From IMG/VR virus record IMGVR_UViG_3300045988_012538, positions 1-5,907 of that record: a DNA stretch of 5,907 nucleotides. One strand, given 5' to 3'. Position numbers and translations under genes: made by a program. Every line of letters begins with the position of its first letter. Positions within the stretch are counted from its first letter, which is position 1. Under the pieces are notes generated by a model. It made no database searches and was not told the DNA's origin. It worked only from the letters and a program-made list of their open reading frames with translations. Shown here piece after piece: positions 1 to 5,907 of the stretch. The stretch comes from a virus.

Positions 1-119
1 ATTTTTTTTGTAACGTATCCTGCAACATATCTATATGTTTCTGGCACTGCTTGTGCTATTTGTATTTGACCCATGCCCCATAGTTTTTCCAGCCATTTAC
101 TTGTGTAGTATCCGTTGTG
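1..119. repeat. Terminal direct repeat, copy 1. Overlap from linearising a circular genome; identical to 5789-5907.
   Basis: Base-by-base comparison: attttttttgtaacgtatcctgcaacat...gtgtagtatccgttgtg occurs at 1-119 and again at 5789-5907 with an offset of 5788. The Rep reading frame runs in phase through the junction. Confidence 0.97.
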
Positions 120-662
120 TTGTATCTTGTATAGGTGTTCCAGGTCTGTTGGTTGCCATCCGTACAATATCATGTGATAGTGTGGTCTTGCTGTTTGTTC
201 TCCGTATTCCCCTGCTACAAAATAGCGTAATTTGCCCCTATAAGCCTTCCTGAGACGTTTTAAGAACTTTTGAATGTCGGGATACAGTAATGTTTGGACG
301 CTTTCAGGGCGCTTCTCTCCCGGTTTCCAGACGTATTGTACTTTTCGCATGATTTCGCCTGTGTTTACTATCATGCCTGGTACATGGTCATCATCATAGG
401 TTAGTGTGATAAACCAAACTTCTTCTTTTGGATAGTCTCGTGCTTCTAATTCTATTCGTGTTGTCCAATCCTCCCTTTGTCTGATTCTGCATCCGATGCA
501 CTGTCCGCATGGTATTAGCATGATATCTTTTCTAAACATTAAATCTTCATATTTTAGCTGTTTTCCCGCTAACTGAGAATAGCGGGAGAGTGTATACACC
601 CTCCCGCTAATTTCTTTGTCGTTCGGGTTGTACAGCCTAATTAATGGCTTGTAACAACTCAC
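1..662 (-). CDS. VP4: Replication initiator VP4 (HUH rolling-circle endonuclease), N-terminal part. It continues through the circular junction into 5788..5431, for 339 aa in total if it starts at GTG 662.
   Basis: My translation of the minus strand: (GTG)SCYKPLIRLYNPNDKEISGRVYTLSRYSQLAGKQLKYEDLMFRKDIMLIPCGQCIGCRIRQREDW...VWFITLTYDD...RPHYHMILYG...WGMGQIQIAQAVPETYRYVAGYVTKK. HUH motif HYH is at 182..174. The paired catalytic tyrosines YVAGY are at 29..15. The frame is open from 671 downward, with no ATG upstream of 539. GGAGGT lies 11 nt upstream of the GTG. The ORF is absent from the track because it has no stop inside this end of the window. Confidence 0.9.
   Translation of the reverse strand, partial: MSCYKPLIRLYNPNDKEISGRVYTLSRYSQLAGKQLKYEDLMFRKDIMLIPCGQCIGCRIRQREDWTTRIELEARDYPKEEVWFITLTYDDDHVPGMIVNTGEIMRKVQYVWKPGEKRPESVQTLLYPDIQKFLKRLRKAYRGKLRYFVAGEYGEQTARPHYHMILYGWQPTDLEHLYKIQHNGYYTSKWLEKLWGMGQIQIAQAVPETYRYVAGYVTKK
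564..610. repeat. Nucleotide-level repeat and inverted-repeat cluster inside the Rep 5' coding region.
   Basis: TCCCGCTAA occurs at 564-572 and 602-610. Its complement TAGCGGGA lies between them at 580-587. The 10-nt palindrome GTGTATACAC is at 590-599. The two direct copies fall in different codon phases of Rep. Confidence 0.8.
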
Positions 663-1495
663 TTTTTGATTTCACCTCCGCCGCCGCCATGCTCTGTTCC
701 GCTTTTGCTCTTGTGCGTTTTGCTTTGCGATTTTGTTGCTTTTTCTATTGCTTTTCCGGTATCGCTTCCGATGTTTGTTAAAGCCTTTGCTAATCCATAA
801 GGCGTCATTTGCGTACTACTGAGCATCTGTTGCCAGCTTTGTGATGCGTTGTACCAGTCGCTTTTACTCCAGCTATTGCTTTCGTATGCGTTCGGTACAA
901 ATCCACCGCTTCTGCTTACTCCTAGTGCGCTACTGCTTGCAAGTCCCATGCTTGCTCCACTAATTGTTCCTGCTGAACCGCCTGGTGTGCTTGCTCCACC
1001 GTTTGCAAAGGCTAGAATTGGATTCAGTCCAGCTTTTTTCATATCTTCAACGGCTCTTTGATATGCTGTATTGCTCATGTGCTCTTGCCATTCGCGGTTT
1101 GCTAGTGCTTCTGCACTGTTGTAGTTCATTGCTACGCTGTTTTCAATGTGGTTGTATACGCCTTGCATGATTGCTTGTAAGGTGTTGTAACCCATCTGTT
1201 TTAACATGCTTTGACTGTTGTATTTGCCTTGCATGGCCGCTTCTTGCCCTTGGTATGCATATGCCTGTTTAAGCCAGTCGTTTACCTGTTGAACGTTTGT
1301 TCCTGAATGACTTCCGCTTTCTGAATGACCGCCGCCTTCGCTTGTACTGCCTCCGCTACTTTGGCTGTTACCGGTTTGACCCCATCCGCCGAATATTCCA
1401 GCAACGTCTTTTGCCGCTCCGGCGACTGTTCCGATTGTATTTGCTACGTTTCCCGCTACGTTTAAGCCGGTTAAAATTCCTGATAATACACTCAT
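659..1495 (-). CDS. VP2: DNA pilot / minor capsid protein VP2.
   Basis: 278 aa with an ATG start. It has a Gly/Ser-rich N-terminal third and the conserved microvirus VP2 core REWQEHMSNTAYQRAVEDMKKAGLNPILAF. It sits immediately after VP1, as in gokushoviruses. Confidence 0.9.
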   Translation of the reverse strand: MSVLSGILTGLNVAGNVANTIGTVAGAAKDVAGIFGGWGQTGNSQSSGGSTSEGGGHSESGSHSGTNVQQVNDWLKQAYAYQGQEAAMQGKYNSQSMLKQMGYNTLQAIMQGVYNHIENSVAMNYNSAEALANREWQEHMSNTAYQRAVEDMKKAGLNPILAFANGGASTPGGSAGTISGASMGLASSSALGVSRSGGFVPNAYESNSWSKSDWYNASQSWQQMLSSTQMTPYGLAKALTNIGSDTGKAIEKATKSQSKTHKSKSGTEHGGGGGEIKK

Positions 1496-1497
1496 TT

Positions 1498-1523
1498 AAA
1501 AATAGCCCGGATTTCTCCGGGCT
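1498..1523 (-). terminator. Hairpin plus T-run between VP1 and VP2; candidate intrinsic terminator or attenuator.
   Basis: Minus strand reads TAA GAAAGGAGGA AGCCCGGA-GAAA-TCCGGGCT ATTTTTAA ATG. This is a perfect 8-bp GC-rich stem (1504-1511 / 1516-1523) with a GAAA loop, followed by ATTTTT, in the sense orientation of the operon. Confidence 0.6.
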
Positions 1524-1533
1524 TCCTCCTTTC

Positions 1534-3207
1534 TTACAGTTTGTACAAGCCTGGCACACTGTACAATGGCATCCGTCTCGTGGTTTTGTTCGTTACTCGG
1601 ATTGCGCCGAAAAACTGCGGCTCATTCTGTACGATGAGTGTACGCGCAATTTCTTCTTTTCCTTCTGCCATCCAGCTTTGCGACAGTGTTGGTACGGCTG
1701 AATAGTAGTCGGCATAATGCCAAAAGTCCAGTGTTCCTGTTGCGTTGCTTCTCATCAGACCGCTTACTCGGTTTGGTTTCATTCTGTAGTCTGCCCAGGC
1801 TTCTTGGTATCCGAATGTATCTTCATCTGATGCTGCGCCGGTGAGCATGATTTCTTTCTTTTTTACAGGCTGCTCTCCTACGTTTGCGAACTGTGGTACA
1901 TAATAGTCCAGTCTGTCCGTTCTGCTCCAGAATCGTTCCAAGCCTTGCTGGTAACTGTGATTGTGTCGTACGCAACATACTCCGATTATAAAGCCGTGTT
2001 CTTCAAAGCTCTTTGTGAAGGAACTTTCATTGATTGGCGTTACTGACATTGCGCCAGTTTCACCGATAGGTGTGTCTGTATTGCTCTGCTGTCCGCTTGT
2101 CTGCACGATTTGGTTCATATTGACATGGTATCTGCCACCGCCAAGGTATTCCGGGATTTGTACAGTTTTATCCGAGATTACAACGTCCCACAGTGCTTGT
2201 ACCTGTTCGCGGTATCTGCTGCCGCCTCGTGCAAGTGCTTCGTAGTACTGCTGTACTGCTACCGCTTTTCTTAGGTCGTTGATGGTTGCTGCTGTTACAC
2301 TGCTGAGGTCTGCGCCTAGGTATACTACGCTATGGTCTGTGTTTGTTCCGTCTCCGATGTTTAAGTATGCTGACCCTGTGCTTCCATCTTCTGCGATTGC
2401 ATACAGTCTGTTTTTGACGTTGTCCGGGTTTGTGCTTCCGTCAAAAAAGCTGTTTGCATATAGAAGTGTCTTTTCTTCAAATTTATCATTTGTGAATCCG
2501 CTTATTTTTGCATTGCCCTGCATCGGCAGTGTCACTTCCGGGCCGCGCTGAGGGTACGGCAAACAGCTGGTAAAGTAGTCGTGGAATTTGTTTACAGGTA
2601 AGCATCTTCCTCCCTTTATTGCTTCCAGCAGTGTTCTTTCTATTTCATCATTGCTTGTGTCGAGGTATGTCACGTCCTCATCACCTGTTTTAATTACTGC
2701 CGCATTATCAACGTTTTCATCTCTGAAAAATTCGTTCCAAATTTTCACATATCCTCTGATGGGTAATGCGTTGACCTCGAATTTCCCTTTAATTTTTGTC
2801 GGTACTCCCATGTAGTCCAGGATTGAATTTTCGTATGGTAGTGCAGCTTGATTCGTACCCATTATTTTAATTTTGGGTACTTTGTATTCCTTTGTTGGCA
2901 TCCATGGCGTGTCTTCTACTTCTCCCATGAACTGTTTGAAATTATCCCATAAGATGCGATTCGGACAATAGAAGTAGTAGAAGTCGATAAATGCGTCGTC
3001 CATCACCGGATACTTTGGCGTGGTCATTCTGATGATTGCTGCCGTGTCCACGCTGAAGGTATCGCCCGGTAATACCTCATCAACATAGAATGGAATCAGT
3101 TTGCCGGAATCGAACGTTGTGAGAATATTCTGGTCGCGGTTGAACCGTGTCCTACTTGCTTTCATTTCCGGAATCTGGTTAAAGTGTCTTTCATTGTTTC
3201 GATTCAC
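1534..3207 (-). CDS. VP1: Major capsid protein VP1 (phiX174 F-like capsid family).
   Basis: 557 aa. The N-terminus HFNQIPEMKASRTRFNRDQNILTTFDSGKLIPFYVDEVLPGDTF is the hallmark microvirus capsid N-terminal block. The start codon is GTG at 3207..3205, with AAGGAGG 7 nt upstream. The first ATG (M15) would remove conserved residues. Confidence 0.95.
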   Translation of the reverse strand: MNRNNERHFNQIPEMKASRTRFNRDQNILTTFDSGKLIPFYVDEVLPGDTFSVDTAAIIRMTTPKYPVMDDAFIDFYYFYCPNRILWDNFKQFMGEVEDTPWMPTKEYKVPKIKIMGTNQAALPYENSILDYMGVPTKIKGKFEVNALPIRGYVKIWNEFFRDENVDNAAVIKTGDEDVTYLDTSNDEIERTLLEAIKGGRCLPVNKFHDYFTSCLPYPQRGPEVTLPMQGNAKISGFTNDKFEEKTLLYANSFFDGSTNPDNVKNRLYAIAEDGSTGSAYLNIGDGTNTDHSVVYLGADLSSVTAATINDLRKAVAVQQYYEALARGGSRYREQVQALWDVVISDKTVQIPEYLGGGRYHVNMNQIVQTSGQQSNTDTPIGETGAMSVTPINESSFTKSFEEHGFIIGVCCVRHNHSYQQGLERFWSRTDRLDYYVPQFANVGEQPVKKKEIMLTGAASDEDTFGYQEAWADYRMKPNRVSGLMRSNATGTLDFWHYADYYSAVPTLSQSWMAEGKEEIARTLIVQNEPQFFGAIRVTNKTTRRMPLYSVPGLYKL

Positions 3208-3602
3208 TTTTCTTCCTCCTTCACTTCAGATTCTTTTGTCGGTTCTTCCTTTGCCATTTTTTGAAGTTCTTTAAGCTTCATGGCGTTTGCCTGTGCGGTC
3301 GCTACCATGCGGTGATACTCGTGAATATTCTGCGGAAATTCGGTGATATCTACTTCTGTTCCGTTTAGTGCTCCTTCGGACAGACTTTTCAGAAACTGCG
3401 GGTCAAAACTTGCTTTCCGGACAATGTTTTTGATGTCGCATTCTTCCGCATAGCTTTCGATTTCCTGCTGTATGTCGATTGGTTCAGTTTCTTGTAACTT
3501 TTCTTTGCCTTTCTCGTCTTTTGTCCAGACGTATTGTTTTCGCATTTTTTCGCCCGGTTCAGAAAAGAAGGGCTTTCGCCCTTCTTCGTATCGTTTATTC
3601 AT
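3204..3602 (-). CDS. VP3: Internal scaffolding protein VP3.
   Basis: 132 aa, acidic and helical, located directly upstream of VP1. The segment GTEVDITEFPQNIHEYHRMVATAQANAMKLKE resembles the D-I/T-x-x-P ... A-x-N block I recall from gokushovirus VP3. GGGAGGG lies 8 nt upstream of the ATG. Confidence 0.72.
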   Translation of the reverse strand: MNKRYEEGRKPFFSEPGEKMRKQYVWTKDEKGKEKLQETEPIDIQQEIESYAEECDIKNIVRKASFDPQFLKSLSEGALNGTEVDITEFPQNIHEYHRMVATAQANAMKLKELQKMAKEEPTKESEVKEEEK

Positions 3603-3834
3603 GCGGCTTGCCCTCCCAGACCTTTTCGGTGTCGTTCGTGAATGTGCCGATTTCGTCTTCGAATACTGCCAATTTGAAGCCGGTATAGTCGCCCGGCTCC
3701 TGTCCGATAAAGGTTTTTTCGTCCTTTGCCATTACATTGCACATACGTGCAAAGGTTGCGTTGTTTTTGTTTTCGCCTACCCATGCATAGCACTTTGCTA
3801 CGTTGTCCCAGACGCCATAGTAGTTGTGTTTCAT
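3595..3834 (-). CDS. Conserved small microvirus non-structural protein (VP5-like), 79 aa.
   Basis: MKHNYYGVWDNVAKCYAWVGENKNNATFARMCNVMAKDEKTFIGQEPGDYTGFKLAVFEDEIGTF... fits the pattern Y-x-V-x-D ... N-x-x-x-A-x-R-x-F ... P-x-DY-x-L ... G-x-FD-x-x-x-G, which I recall from small gokushovirus proteins. ATG 3834 is preceded by AAAAGGAGAAAAAACA. The track's longer form starts at a GTG (3870) and would overlap the basic ORF 3851..3973. Confidence 0.65.
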   Translation of the reverse strand: MKHNYYGVWDNVAKCYAWVGENKNNATFARMCNVMAKDEKTFIGQEPGDYTGFKLAVFEDEIGTFTNDTEKVWEGKPHE

Positions 3835-3850
3835 TGTTTTTTCTCCTTTT

Positions 3851-3973
3851 TTACAGCCGGATGCCACCACGCATAGGTTTCTGGCTGAGGTTGATGTTTT
3901 TGGTTTTGCGTGCGGTTACGTTAAACATACGGCGGTCTTTTGCGCCGTTCATGGTTTTACGATGCCGTGCCAT
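3851..3973 (-). CDS. Small highly basic DNA-binding / packaging protein (phiX174 J-like, gokushovirus ORF8-like), 40 aa.
   Basis: My translation: MARHRKTMNGAKDRRMFNVTARKTKNINLSQKPMRGGIRL*. It has an Arg/Lys-rich N-terminus and the C-terminal MRGGIRL typical of these proteins. AGGGAG lies 8 nt upstream of ATG 3973. The stop TAA is followed 16 nt later by the next gene's ATG. It is below the 60-aa track cutoff. Confidence 0.72.
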   Translation of the reverse strand: MARHRKTMNGAKDRRMFNVTARKTKNINLSQKPMRGGIRL

Positions 3974-4184
3974 TGTTATACTCCCTTCTCATCAGTTCCA
4001 GTTCTATAGCGTTTGCAAATCTCTTCATTTGCCAAATTTCTTCTATCAGTCTTTTTGCATCTTCGATCTTTGACATTTTTCTAAGCATTTTGTAATTGCT
4101 ATCGATTTCTTTGTATTTTCGTGTGAGCAGTTCTTTTAGTGCTTCTTCGGTCTGGTCTCTTACGTTCCATGTTTTGTTCATCAT
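3957..4184 (-). CDS. Hypothetical helical protein, 75 aa.
   Basis: MMNKTWNVRDQTEEALKELLTRKYKEIDSNYKMLRKMSKIEDAKRLIEEIWQMKRFANAIELELMRREYNNGTAS. AAGGAG lies 7 nt upstream of ATG 4184. The track's 95-aa version starts at a TTG (4244) with no SD. I recognise no family. Confidence 0.55.
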   Translation of the reverse strand: MMNKTWNVRDQTEEALKELLTRKYKEIDSNYKMLRKMSKIEDAKRLIEEIWQMKRFANAIELELMRREYNNGTAS

Positions 4185-4188
4185 GGTT

Positions 4189-4311
4189 TTACTCCTTTTC
4201 CTTTTCGTTGATGCTATCATGCAGTGCGTGATAGATTTCGTCAAGCTTTTCCAGAATATCCATCATCAGCCGGATTGCCTGCTTGACGTCTTTAATGGAA
4301 ATCAGTGCCAT
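4189..4311 (-). CDS. Hypothetical small acidic protein, 40 aa.
   Basis: MALISIKDVKQAIRLMMDILEKLDEIYHALHDSINEKEKE*. AAAGGGGGT lies 5 nt upstream of ATG 4311. It fills the gap between the peptidase stop (4313) and the next ATG (4184) exactly. It is below the track cutoff and I recognise no family. Confidence 0.45.
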   Translation of the reverse strand: MALISIKDVKQAIRLMMDILEKLDEIYHALHDSINEKEKE

Positions 4312-4312
4312 T

Positions 4313-4702
4313 TTATACCCCCTTTCTGTATTTGCTGGTTCTCACGTCTAAGTGTACCCAACTTTTGTATACGATAATGCCGCATTCATTCGGTGTGATT
4401 TTATTCAGTTCGTTGGCAATTTCTTTTGCGCTCATTCCATTTACTCGAATGTCTGCAGCCATACCGCACATATGGTAACTGTATCTTGCTCCCCCGCATT
4501 TCTTGTTCCACTCTGGTGTTCTGTATCCGCTGGTGATGATGACAGGTTTTTCTGTTTTGTTTCTGAGAATGTCTAAGATTGATACGAGGTGTTCGTCTAT
4601 AAATACTACTTGAGAGCCGTCTTTACATGCAAATTCTTTTACTTTAAAGTGCTGTCCTACTTTTTCGTTTGCGTCTCTTGCCATGAAATAGCTTTTAATC
4701 AT
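4313..4702 (-). CDS. Peptidase M15 family zinc D,D-/L,D-peptidase (cell-wall hydrolase, putative endolysin), 129 aa.
   Basis: The sequence SGYRTPEWNKKCGGARYSYHMCGMAADIRVNG ... WVHLDVR matches the M15A/VanY-like signature: SGYR..N..GG..S.H-x6-D, plus a second HxD. The track start at 4711 is a TTG. ATG 4702 has GAAGG about 9 nt upstream and overlaps the upstream stop as ATGATTAA. Confidence 0.85.
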   Translation of the reverse strand: MIKSYFMARDANEKVGQHFKVKEFACKDGSQVVFIDEHLVSILDILRNKTEKPVIITSGYRTPEWNKKCGGARYSYHMCGMAADIRVNGMSAKEIANELNKITPNECGIIVYKSWVHLDVRTSKYRKGV

Positions 4703-4877
4703 TTTCGTCAACCTTCTTTACTTCCGTTATTTCGTATCTGTCAAGCCCGTGCCCCGTTTCGTCGATTAACCGTTGTACAGTAACGTTTCTTGCGTCTACA
4801 GGGTCAATCGCGACAACCATATAGCAATCGTGGATTTTTTCAGTGTTATTGTATACGTACACGTTGTATCTCTTCAT
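4695..4877 (-). CDS. Hypothetical protein, 60 aa; first gene downstream of the large intergenic region.
   Basis: MKRYNVYVYNNTEKIHDCYMVVAIDPVDARNVTVQRLIDETGHGLDRYEITEVKKVDEND. It has an ATG start with GAAAGGA 12 nt upstream. Its stop overlaps the peptidase start. I recognise no family. Confidence 0.55.
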   Translation of the reverse strand: MKRYNVYVYNNTEKIHDCYMVVAIDPVDARNVTVQRLIDETGHGLDRYEITEVKKVDEND

Positions 4878-4908
4878 GGCATTGCACCATCCTTTCCCCT
4901 TCTATTTT

Positions 4909-4920
4909 ATTATATGTCAA
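4909..4920 (-). promoter_or_regulatory. Candidate sigma70/sigmaA-type promoter element for the gene string.
   Basis: Minus strand reads TTGACATATAAT. A consensus -10 TATAAT (4914..4909) directly abuts a consensus TTGACA (4920..4915), about 32 nt upstream of ATG 4877. The two hexamers are not at canonical 17-bp spacing, so only one can act in a given promoter. Confidence 0.35.
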
Positions 4921-5061
4921 TAGCTTTTAAAAGGGTTTTTGCGTTTTGTAATAATTTTGTAACCAGCCTGTACTCCTTTGTTTTGAATGGCGCTTTAGCG
5001 CCTTGCCGTATGGAGCGCAGCGGAATTCGGCTGAATCCGTTCCTTTTTAGCGCTGTGCGCG

Positions 5062-5228
5062 TTTTCAACACTTTTAACACTTTCAACAGGTTTTCCACAA
5101 AATGTTGCACAAATGTTTTCGTCATTTTGACGGACTTTCAACATTTCAACAAATTTTCAACAAAACTTTCAACAGTATTTTTCGCTTTTTTCCTACGTTT
5201 TAGCGTTAAATTTTAGTACTTTTCAACT
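5062..5228. repeat. Array of same-orientation TTTCAACA 9-mers; iteron-like, resembling DnaA boxes.
   Basis: Copies: TTTTCAACA 5062, CTTTTAACA 5071, CTTTCAACA 5080, TTTTCCACA 5091, CTTTCAACA 5135, ATTTCAACA 5143, TTTTCAACA 5154, CTTTCAACA 5166, TTTTCAACT 5220. Spacings within each cluster are 8-12 nt. Confidence 0.85.
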
Positions 5229-5271
5229 TTTTCACTATCTCTACTACTACTCCTACAACAAGTTAATATTA

Positions 5272-5318
5272 TATCGCGCGTGCGCGCGTGCGCGCTATCG
5301 CGCGTGTGCGCACGTGCG
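5272..5318. repeat. GC-rich, strictly alternating pyrimidine-purine (CG/TG) tract forming an imperfect 20-bp inverted repeat.
   Basis: Sequence: TAT-CGCGCGTGCGCGCGTGCGCGC-TAT-CGCGCGTGTGCGCACGTGCG. The alternating runs are 5275-5295 (21 nt) and 5299-5318 (20 nt). The 11-nt direct repeat TATCGCGCGTG occurs at 5272 and 5296. Arms 5275-5294 and 5299-5318 pair as 16 Watson-Crick plus 4 G-T on the + strand. Confidence 0.9.
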
Positions 5319-5324
5319 AATTAG

Positions 5325-5358
5325 CTTACTTGATAGACTGGATAGACTGAATAGGCTG
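5325..5358. repeat. CTTACTTGATAG 12-mer (copy 1) leading into three tandem 9-mers.
   Basis: GATAGACTG is at 5332-5340, GATAGACTG at 5341-5349 and AATAGGCTG at 5350-5358. The 12-mer CTTACTTGATAG at 5325-5336 recurs exactly at 5398-5409. Confidence 0.9.
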
Positions 5359-5382
5359 ATACATGGAGCCTTTAGACGACAA

Positions 5383-5425
5383 TCACCTAGCCCAGTTCTT
5401 ACTTGATAGGTACTGGGCTAGGTGA
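5383..5425. repeat. Perfect 14-bp inverted repeat with a 15-nt loop; candidate origin stem-loop and/or Rep 3' structure.
   Basis: TCACCTAGCCCAGT (5383-5396) and ACTGGGCTAGGTGA (5412-5425) are exact reverse complements. The loop TCTTACTTGATAGGT carries copy 2 of the 12-mer. The structure lies 5 nt from the Rep stop codon (5431-5433). Confidence 0.85.
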
Positions 5426-5430
5426 CACCG

Positions 5431-5907
5431 TTAAAGTGTCCCCCTCTTCTTCATCTGCTTCTTTATCACTCTTTCTTTTGTCTTGCATTGTTCTGCAAAG
5501 TCTGTGTTTTCATACTTTAGCCTGTTTTCTGCGATTGCTGCTGCTTGTCTGTTCTGTTTAATTCTCCACAATCTTTGTGGGTTTTCTGCTTCCATCATTT
5601 TTTCATAATAACGTGGAATTTGTGCGTGTTTGCCGTTTGTGCATTGGATGTATCCTTGTCTCCAGATTTCTGCTTTGTGTTCTTGATAGTAGTGGTCTCC
5701 TAAGCCTGGCTTAAGGCTCATACATGCGAAAGGCTTTGTTTGCCCTAGTTCGTAGTATATGTTTGCTTTTTGGCCGTCAATTTCGTACATTTTTTTTGTA
5801 ACGTATCCTGCAACATATCTATATGTTTCTGGCACTGCTTGTGCTATTTGTATTTGACCCATGCCCCATAGTTTTTCCAGCCATTTACTTGTGTAGTATC
5901 CGTTGTG
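5431..5907 (-). CDS. VP4: Replication initiator VP4, C-terminal part. It is 5'-truncated by the window end, and 5789-5907 duplicates 1-119.
   Basis: The track ORF 5431..5862 (MGQIQIAQAVPETYRYVAGYVTKKMYEIDG...) is in frame with the 1..662 segment: 662 + 358 nt = 1020 nt = 340 codons. YVAGYVTKK is the superfamily I Rep two-tyrosine motif, comparable to phiX174 protein A. Confidence 0.93.
   Translation of the reverse strand, partial: HNGYYTSKWLEKLWGMGQIQIAQAVPETYRYVAGYVTKKMYEIDGQKANIYYELGQTKPFACMSLKPGLGDHYYQEHKAEIWRQGYIQCTNGKHAQIPRYYEKMMEAENPQRLWRIKQNRQAAAIAENRLKYENTDFAEQCKTKERVIKKQMKKRGTL
5789..5907. repeat. Terminal direct repeat, copy 2; identical to 1-119.
   Basis: Same comparison as copy 1. 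It implies a circular unit of 5,788 nt. Confidence 0.97.

Follow-up and report, generated by a model that had tools for sequence, protein, structure and literature searches.

A strand-specific CG/TG hairpin in the origin cassette of gut gokushoviruses, with a possible bearing on the polarity of the packaged strand

Beside the origin-type stem-loop of a gut gokushovirus lies a hairpin of alternating CG and TG steps, and equivalents of this element were found in more than 100 independently assembled gokushovirus genomes, where it is conserved with strand-specific pairing, with covariation between its arms, and in a fixed place and orientation relative to the origin loop. When the origin lies on the other strand with respect to the genes, the hairpin is flipped with it. 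The DNA analyzed here (the window) is a stretch of 5,907 nt that corresponds to positions 1 to 5,907 of IMG/VR record IMGVR_UViG_3300045988_012538. Gokushoviruses are the dominant ssDNA phages in animal guts, and to our knowledge nothing is known experimentally about the initiation of either of their DNA strands. We regard it as a form, so far undescribed, of a known type of signal, and we tentatively favor the view that it acts in the ssDNA of a rolling-circle origin cassette, as a complementary-strand initiation signal on the strand that is displaced and packaged.

The hairpin and its genomic setting

The window is a complete circular genome. Its termini carry a 119-nt direct repeat (1-119 identical to 5789-5907), and because this repeat is an assembly overlap of 119 nt, the true circle has a length of 5788 nt and was cut inside VP4. 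All recognizable genes are on the − strand, namely VP2 (659-1495), VP1 (1534-3207), VP3 (3204-3602), an M15 peptidase (4313-4711), and VP4, the HUH replication initiator with the motif YVAGYVTKK. The last of these runs across the circular junction (539-1, then 5788-5431), with its N-terminal part at 1-539 and its C-terminal part at 5431-5907 of the window. The nearest relatives in GenBank are human and pig gut gokushoviruses with 76-85% DNA identity. The first-pass annotation, which was made from the letters of the window alone, had called the genome AT-leaning; this holds mildly (43% G+C), but CpG is not depleted (observed/expected 1.05). A strong GC-rich hairpin (GCGGGAGGGTGTATACACTCTCCCGC; 538-612, − strand) occurs between VP2 and the VP4 start codon and may be a terminator or another ssDNA structure. 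In a covariance-model search against Rfam, no family was returned at the CG/TG element, and the sole match in the window was a sub-threshold one at 538-612, to Termite-leu (E 0.34), which is probably meaningless.

The CG/TG element sits in a non-coding region of ~300 nt downstream of VP4. Its sequence from 5272 to 5318 is TATCGCGCGTGCGCGCGTGCGCGC TATCGCGCGTGTGCGCACGTGCG, with 14 CG steps and 6 TG/CA steps, and its strict pyrimidine/purine runs at 5275-5295 (21 nt) and 5299-5318 (20 nt) are the two longest of the genome, the next being 15 nt. Both runs, the 11-nt repeat TATCGCGCGTG with copies at 5272 and 5296, the embedded palindromes GTGCGCAC and CGCACGTGCG, and the AT-rich flank aagttaatattatat beside the runs were all present as first annotated. 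The tract has periodicities of 8 nt and 4 nt. Its 47 nt hold 14 of the 292 CpG dinucleotides of the window, compared with 7 in the best other 47-nt segment, as well as 7 of the 22 GCGC sites and both GCGCGC sites of the genome. An alternating run of at least 20 nt was seen in 1.35% of 2000 first-order Markov simulations of the window, and two adjacent runs were far rarer than one.

On the + strand, the element folds into a hairpin (5274-5319) with arms at 5274-5294 and 5299-5319 and the loop CTAT at 5295-5298. The 4-nt loop, four G·T wobbles, and A·C at the same four positions on the − strand agree with the original description, which had counted 20 bp; we found 21 pairs, consisting of 17 Watson-Crick and 4 G·T. 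Folding of both strands as ssDNA, a check that had been proposed, gave −26.2 kcal/mol (z −3.7) for the + strand and −20.2 kcal/mol (z −0.8) for the − strand; in the supercoiling model described below, the two strands came to −25.5 and −19.8 kcal/mol. The + strand hairpin is clearly the more stable of the two, and the − strand hairpin is weaker because its four wobble positions turn into A·C. The long, CpG-rich alternating runs do place the tract in the Z-prone class of sequences. In a simple statistical-mechanical estimate for a 5.8-kb circle, the B-Z transition was calculated to occur at σ −0.036 to −0.038, a level that replicative form could reach once purified, but that is borderline in vivo, where only unconstrained supercoiling counts. 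In the same model, cruciform extrusion would cost ~37 kcal/mol, with a critical σ of ~−0.07.

An origin-type stem-loop is located ~80 nt 3′ of the hairpin on the same strand (5383-5425, + strand). It consists of a perfect 14-bp stem (5383-5396/5412-5425) and a loop (5397-5411) that contains CTTACTTGATAG at 5398-5409, folds with a z of ~−6.9, lies on the strand opposite all genes, and is 6 nt from the VP4 stop codon. The loop sequence resembles the experimentally known nick site of phiX174, CAACTTG^ATA, and an equivalent stem-loop with a ..YCTTGAT loop was found across Gokushovirinae, including Chp2 (position 2903; loop tctacttgat). In 39 distinct versions of the origin stem, there were 453 Watson-Crick pairs, 7 G·T, and 1 A·C, with compensatory changes. 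Between the two hairpins (5325-5362, + strand) CTTACTTGATAG occurs once more, this time outside any hairpin, and next to it come the iteron-like sequences GATAGACTG, GATAGACTG, and AATAGGCTG and then ATAC; these repeats are kept in relatives and are presumed to be Rep-binding repeats. The binding part of the phiX174 origin (CACTATAGACCAC) likewise contains ATAGAC. With its nick motif in the loop, adjacent iterons, and neighboring HUH Rep gene, the stem-loop at 5383-5425 is like the HUH-Rep origins of CRESS-DNA viruses and phiX174, whereas the CG/TG hairpin itself has no nick motif. In every genome that carries it, the CG/TG hairpin shares a strand with the origin loop and precedes it, on the 5′ side, by 13-190 nt.

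The other side of the hairpin is occupied by a conserved non-coding module (4973-5273) with at least nine TTTCAACA repeats (TGTTGAAA on the − strand), which is bordered by the CG hairpin at one side and by CGCGCACAGCGC at the other. Its end is the AT-rich flank (AAGTTAATATTATA, 5260-5273), which contains TATAAT on the − strand (5273-5268) and which, in relatives with an extra hairpin, goes with the module rather than the CG hairpin. DNA identity within the module is 74-91%, even where the proteins are too diverged for DNA matching. Two DnaA-box-like sequences, TTTTCCACA and TTGCACA, lie inside it at 5091-5099 and 5104-5112 and have invariant positions among relatives. Folding of 4965-5070 was not significant as a further structured element, and a 71-aa ORF that overlaps the module (4910-5125) showed no conservation as an ORF among relatives. 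In some relatives (L072, L081, L099, and L109-L111) the TGTTGAAA module of ~270 nt is inverted in place, and in these the orientation of the CG hairpin to the origin is unchanged. Relatives also possess extra hairpins between the module and the origin. One of these, GGCGCT-TGTGAGCTTGCGAACAAT-AGCGCC (L008, L012, L017, and more; ~20-50 nt past the CTACAACAAGT anchor), has compensatory stem changes; another, CCC-TTGAAGCGTAGCGAATA-GGG (L003, L018, L030), has a loop with TAGCGA, which resembles the CS-6 motif of ssoA; and a terminator-like one, GGGGCTGAC...GTCAGCCCCTTTTT, lies on the origin strand (L022, L026, L099).

Distribution and strand-specific pairing

When five GenBank genomes were aligned over the region, all five had the alternating CG/TG hairpin, including two whose VP4 is only 49% and 56% identical to that of the window. 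With the conserved sequence next to the hairpin as anchor, IMG/VR yielded 64 further loci, and the two-arm element was present in 66 of 69 sequences (these 64 loci, the window, and four GenBank genomes). A second scan, with the neighboring origin loop as anchor, identified the element in ~117 of ~126 distinct microvirus-sized genomes. VP4 profile searches located it in lineages down to ~40% VP4 identity, with hairpin-bearing genomes spanning 40-97%, and it was also detected in human-gut assemblies from ENA. An equivalent GC island, for which a search of related genomes had been suggested, is therefore found beside the origin in relatives, and the statement in the first-pass annotation that Microviridae have no equivalent was wrong as far as sequences are concerned. 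The worry expressed there about an assembly artefact is dispelled too, since variants of the element turn up again in GenBank genomes from France and China as well as in numerous independent IMG/VR and ENA assemblies. In the literature that could be searched, no paper describes the hairpin, the gokushovirus origin stem-loop, or antisense packaging, and nothing relevant on Z-DNA was found; one report merely speculates that hairpins of small microviruses might be primosome sites (PMC9865509). Outside microviruses, our search for the element gave only loop-less CG/TG microsatellites and GC-rich chance matches in metagenome contigs.

Stem length ranges from 18 to 26 bp across versions, and neither the loop sequence (CTAT, TTT, CTT, TCTA, ATTA) nor the flanks are conserved. 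The element is absent from the close relatives L062, L067, L072, and L104, only remnants were seen in L080 and L066, and partial deletions of the tract occurred in L066, L080, and L054. Most of the gokushoviruses surveyed are without such a hairpin. Its absence from close relatives and from most gokushoviruses indicates that the element is dispensable or replaceable. In genomes that lack it, the 100 nt 5′ of the origin fell within the top 5% of structure of the genome in question in 26% of cases, compared with 11% for the 3′ side, which is only a modest enrichment of other structure at that place. Lysogenic gokushoviruses use a 28-bp dif-like motif that flanks their prophages (PMC7062461). A dif/XerCD site was rejected for the element, as the best dif match in the genome was at chance level and elsewhere, and so was a prophage junction, as a search of 185,579 reference genomes returned no prophage from this VP4 clade.

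Analysis of 79 distinct versions of the stem, all read in the + strand orientation, revealed 1154 G·C, 172 A·T, and 306 G·T pairs, as opposed to 9 A·C. The partner base was T opposite A in 95% of cases and opposite G in 21% (odds ratio 72). The arms were complementary in inverted orientation at 81% of positions and identical in direct orientation at 59%, from which we conclude that the hairpin is their organizing principle; a direct-repeat (iteron) model was discarded, as it fits worse by this measure and as A nearly always faces T. An alignment of 52 distinct stems, with G·U allowed, had 99.5% of its cells paired, compared with 96.8±0.3 after shuffling, and none of 500 shuffles reached the observed value. 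Both sides had changed at 8 of 18 pairs, in 39 cells where 14.8 were expected (0/500 shuffles), and every pairing score dropped when the register was slid. The origin-strand hairpin was the more stable one in 77 of the 79 versions (medians −24.2 versus −18.2 kcal/mol), with a median advantage of 5.7 kcal/mol. Among the hairpin variants (52-79 distinct), there were transitions only and the alternation was never broken; the neighboring origin stem, by contrast, has compensated transversions. Mutation bias as the source of the G·T excess is unsupported by polarized rare variants in five genes, where C>T on the + strand (G>A on the coding strand) was no commoner than C>T on the coding strand.

Such a rule is not what a function of the duplex predicts. 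In a cruciform, each transition in either arm yields one G·T and one A·C, so that no asymmetry is expected, and Z-DNA has no need for arm complementarity, so that no pairing rule of this kind is expected either. The ratio of 306 G·T to 9 A·C on one strand thus excludes Z-DNA, the cruciform, and palindrome binding as the selected property, and supercoil sensing, which had also been suggested, is not what has been conserved. A cruciform would also require equal hairpins on both strands, and the energies of the + and − strands differ. As judged from these alignments, the object of selection is a hairpin within one single strand. The first-pass annotation had noted C·A mismatches on the coding-sense strand; the strand that folds is the other, which also bears the origin loop.

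Candidate functions of the hairpin

In the mechanism that we propose, the hairpin would fold on the strand that bears the Rep nick-site loop, i.e., the T-rich, non-coding + strand. Since it lies ~80 nt 5′ of the nick loop, its displacement would come close to the end of every replication round. The G·T wobbles would hold the + strand hairpin stable (~−25 kcal/mol), and the A·C mismatches would weaken both the hairpin of the template strand and the cruciform in the duplex replicative form. The hairpin would then stand out in ssDNA as an SSB-resistant duplex landmark, at which host RNA polymerase, primase, or a PriA-type primosome could prime the complementary strand after infection. A complementary-strand priming site had been among the original suggestions and is the reading we favor, albeit with some reserve, on the strand opposite from the coding-sense strand.

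Several known systems bear on this proposal. In the intergenic region of the Ff phages (M13/f1/fd), the minus-strand origin hairpins [B] and [C] directly adjoin the plus-strand nick hairpin on its 5′ side. The likeness lies in stable hairpins just 5′ of a Rep nick site on the packaged strand, which in Ff function only as ssDNA; however, the Ff hairpins mimic a −35/−10 promoter for RNA polymerase, whereas the gokushovirus stem is pure CG/TG without such boxes, and the virus family and host are different. Among Bullavirinae, the complementary-strand origin of phiX174 is a PriA (n′) primosome assembly site and that of G4 is a primase origin. These are intergenic viral-strand hairpins of the same family with the same presumed purpose, but their place between genes F and G is a long way from the viral-strand origin, whereas the gokushovirus hairpin abuts the origin, and its stem shares no sequence with either of them. 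Single-strand origins of plasmids work on the displaced strand only and in one orientation, and they are modular, limit host range, and are flexible in position (PMC5703833). Like the plasmid elements ssoA, ssoU, ssoT, and ssoW, which are exchangeable among related replicons and not strictly essential (PMC5703833), the hairpin is modular and dependent on strand and orientation, and it has extensive secondary structure. The plasmid origins differ in being ~160 nt long, compared with ~46 nt here, and in possessing RS_B and CS-6 motifs; the gokushovirus stem contains no ssoA RS_B, no CS-6, and no promoter-like −35/−10 boxes, and priming by it is a prediction.

Two properties of single-strand origins are seen in the element. 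The stem forms a stable secondary structure in ssDNA, and its wobble polarity always matches the strand marked by the origin loop and T-skew, flipped genomes included, as would be expected of a signal on the displaced, packaged strand. The modularity and host-range limits of plasmid single-strand origins also fit the patchy, cassette-like spread of the hairpin, which was present in 31 of 77 genomes with A > T and in 3 of 51 with T > A at third codon positions (see the survey below). It is the layout of the Ff minus-strand origin, together with the behavior of the plasmid origins, that leads us to favor complementary-strand initiation. Strict purine/pyrimidine alternation is no requirement of a priming hairpin and so is not accounted for by this reading; it may have arisen through evolution via wobble intermediates or slippage of 4- or 8-nt units, or it may reflect a real, secondary role of Z-DNA.

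An ssDNA hairpin on the displaced strand could also serve a purpose other than priming. It might aid the refolding of the regenerated origin stem-loop for Rep termination and circularization, shield the origin region from SSB or packaging proteins, or mark the packaging end. All of the strand-specific evidence is shared between such a role and initiation, and the tight linkage of the hairpin to the origin loop and iterons, always on their 5′ side, would suit it. We nevertheless consider it unlikely, as no known microvirus requires an accessory of this sort, the spacing between hairpin and origin is variable (13-190 nt) and tolerates other hairpins in between, and many genomes have the same origin loop without the element. 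A role in the duplex, in which the tract would flip to Z-DNA or extrude a cruciform and thereby tune superhelical stress at the origin or a promoter, draws on the unbroken alternation, on variation by transitions alone (as against the compensated transversions of the origin stem), on the modeled B-Z transition, and on the adjoining origin and nearby TATAAT box. (CG)n/(TG)n inserts form Z-DNA in supercoiled plasmids, and the tract belongs to the same sequence class, with a calculated transition near σ −0.037; the difference is that its conservation is strand-specific and dependent on arm pairing. A duplex role provides no ground for a preference for G·T on one strand, and Z-DNA needs neither complementary arms nor a central loop, yet the arms covary. 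Moreover, the calculated B-Z threshold is one that unconstrained supercoiling usually fails to reach in vivo, the cruciform is disfavored by its critical σ, and the polarity of the hairpin tracks the origin strand when the origin is flipped. Taken together, we find a duplex role quite improbable.

It is similarly doubtful that the tract is functionless, i.e., a slippage-prone, microsatellite-like CG/TG sequence or a small selfish palindrome spread by recombination among gokushoviruses. The 8-nt and 4-nt periodicities, the patchy and modular distribution, the partial deletions, and the frequency of alternating CG/TG microsatellites in unrelated metagenome contigs are all in keeping with such an origin. 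Those microsatellites, however, lack the two-arm, loop-centered form, and the stem here is confined to 18-26 bp; in addition, the pairing rule, covariation, and fixed position and orientation across VP4 identities of 40-97% point to purifying selection. Finally, a GC-rich intergenic hairpin directly downstream of VP4 might act in RNA, where G·U is normal, as a transcription terminator or a stabilizing structure. This we regard as very improbable. The strand that tolerates wobbles is antisense to all genes, and it is the mRNA-sense version that has the A·C mismatches; polarity tracks the origin and not gene direction; there is no Rfam match; and no T-run follows the hairpin on either strand, nor did a terminator scan return the site. 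An intrinsic terminator was rejected for lack of a U-tract after the GC-rich hairpin.

Polarity classes and the packaged strand

At four-fold degenerate sites of the coding strand, the window has A at 0.55 and T at 0.11, the mirror image of phiX174 (A 0.09, T 0.58). The corresponding values were A 0.25 and T 0.49 for Chp2, A 0.28 and T 0.65 for SpV4, and A 0.45 and T 0.23 for phiMH2K. In ssDNA phages, T-richness at synonymous sites is a recognized mark of the viral strand, which is the exposed one (PMC3278643). We use this skew as one of three strand markers in a survey of 128 distinct gokushovirus genomes, which were classified by third codon positions on the coding strand and scored for an origin-type stem-loop with a CTTGAT loop. 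In the class with A > T, this loop was on the non-coding strand in 59 genomes, on the coding strand in 4, on both in 2, and on none in 12. In the class with T > A, it was on the non-coding strand in 2, on the coding strand in 38, on both in 0, and on none in 11. Thus, in 97 of the 103 genomes with a loop called on one strand, the loop was on the strand that is T-rich at synonymous sites, and the exceptions mostly had near-zero skew. Chp2, a member of the T > A class, and SpV4 have a T-rich coding strand and the origin loop on that strand, and phiX174 is likewise by skew and nick motif. phiMH2K belongs to the A-rich class by skew, and no origin loop was found in it.

The wobbles of the CG/TG hairpin follow the same division. 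L396, L392, and L402 carry their origin on the coding strand; there, too, the hairpin precedes the origin loop on the 5′ side, and its coding strand shows 5, 4, and 3 G·T wobbles, respectively, and 0 A·C. L436 and L440 carry theirs on the non-coding strand, and their mismatches read as A·C along the coding strand, equivalent to G·T along the non-coding one. Three independent markers, i.e., wobble polarity, the strand of the nick motif, and synonymous T-skew, therefore agree on the strand in both classes.

Rolling-circle replication displaces the strand that has been nicked, and in Microviridae this strand is then packaged, as established for phiX174, whose motif is nicked on the viral strand. 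Since the strand of the origin loop and synonymous T-richness go together, gokushoviruses of the type found in the window probably package the gene-antisense strand; that is, the loop-bearing strand, antisense to the genes, is probably the one found in the virion. The composition is partly in conflict with the spectrum of rare variants at third codon positions of the coding strand (VP4, VP1, VP2, VP3, and M15 of close relatives), in which C>T accounted for 0.39 and G>A for 0.20, although T is by far the rarest base at these positions; this spectrum leans against antisense packaging. The two polarity classes, as seen in the window and in loci L194-L246, L367-L440, L069-L071, and L193, interleave in VP4 similarity, which makes several flips possible.

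On balance, we lean slightly toward the view that a large class of Gokushovirinae, to which this genome and its relatives from the gut belong and probably phiMH2K as well, are negative-sense ssDNA phages that package the antisense strand, with the CG/TG hairpin as the virion-strand signal that starts synthesis of the coding strand. If these phages are negative-sense, the hairpin might also act as a single-strand promoter and allow transcription straight from the incoming DNA.

The analysis defines a compact gokushovirus origin cassette, in which the CG/TG hairpin is joined by iterons and by a stem-loop whose nick motif is like that of phiX174. It also provides a sequence-only read-out of the single-stranded strand, obtained by combining the wobble polarity of the hairpin with the origin-loop strand and synonymous T-skew, and by this read-out the 128 genomes split the subfamily into two polarity classes. 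The Z-DNA reading is a side issue here, and the element is of value chiefly because its wobble polarity, taken with the origin loop and skew, points to antisense packaging in a large class of gokushoviruses. Microviridae are uniformly positive-sense according to textbooks. If antisense packaging is confirmed, this statement would not hold for a large class, viromes would call for a different strand-aware analysis, and the deposited genomes of the antisense class would have the reverse orientation to that of the virion strand.
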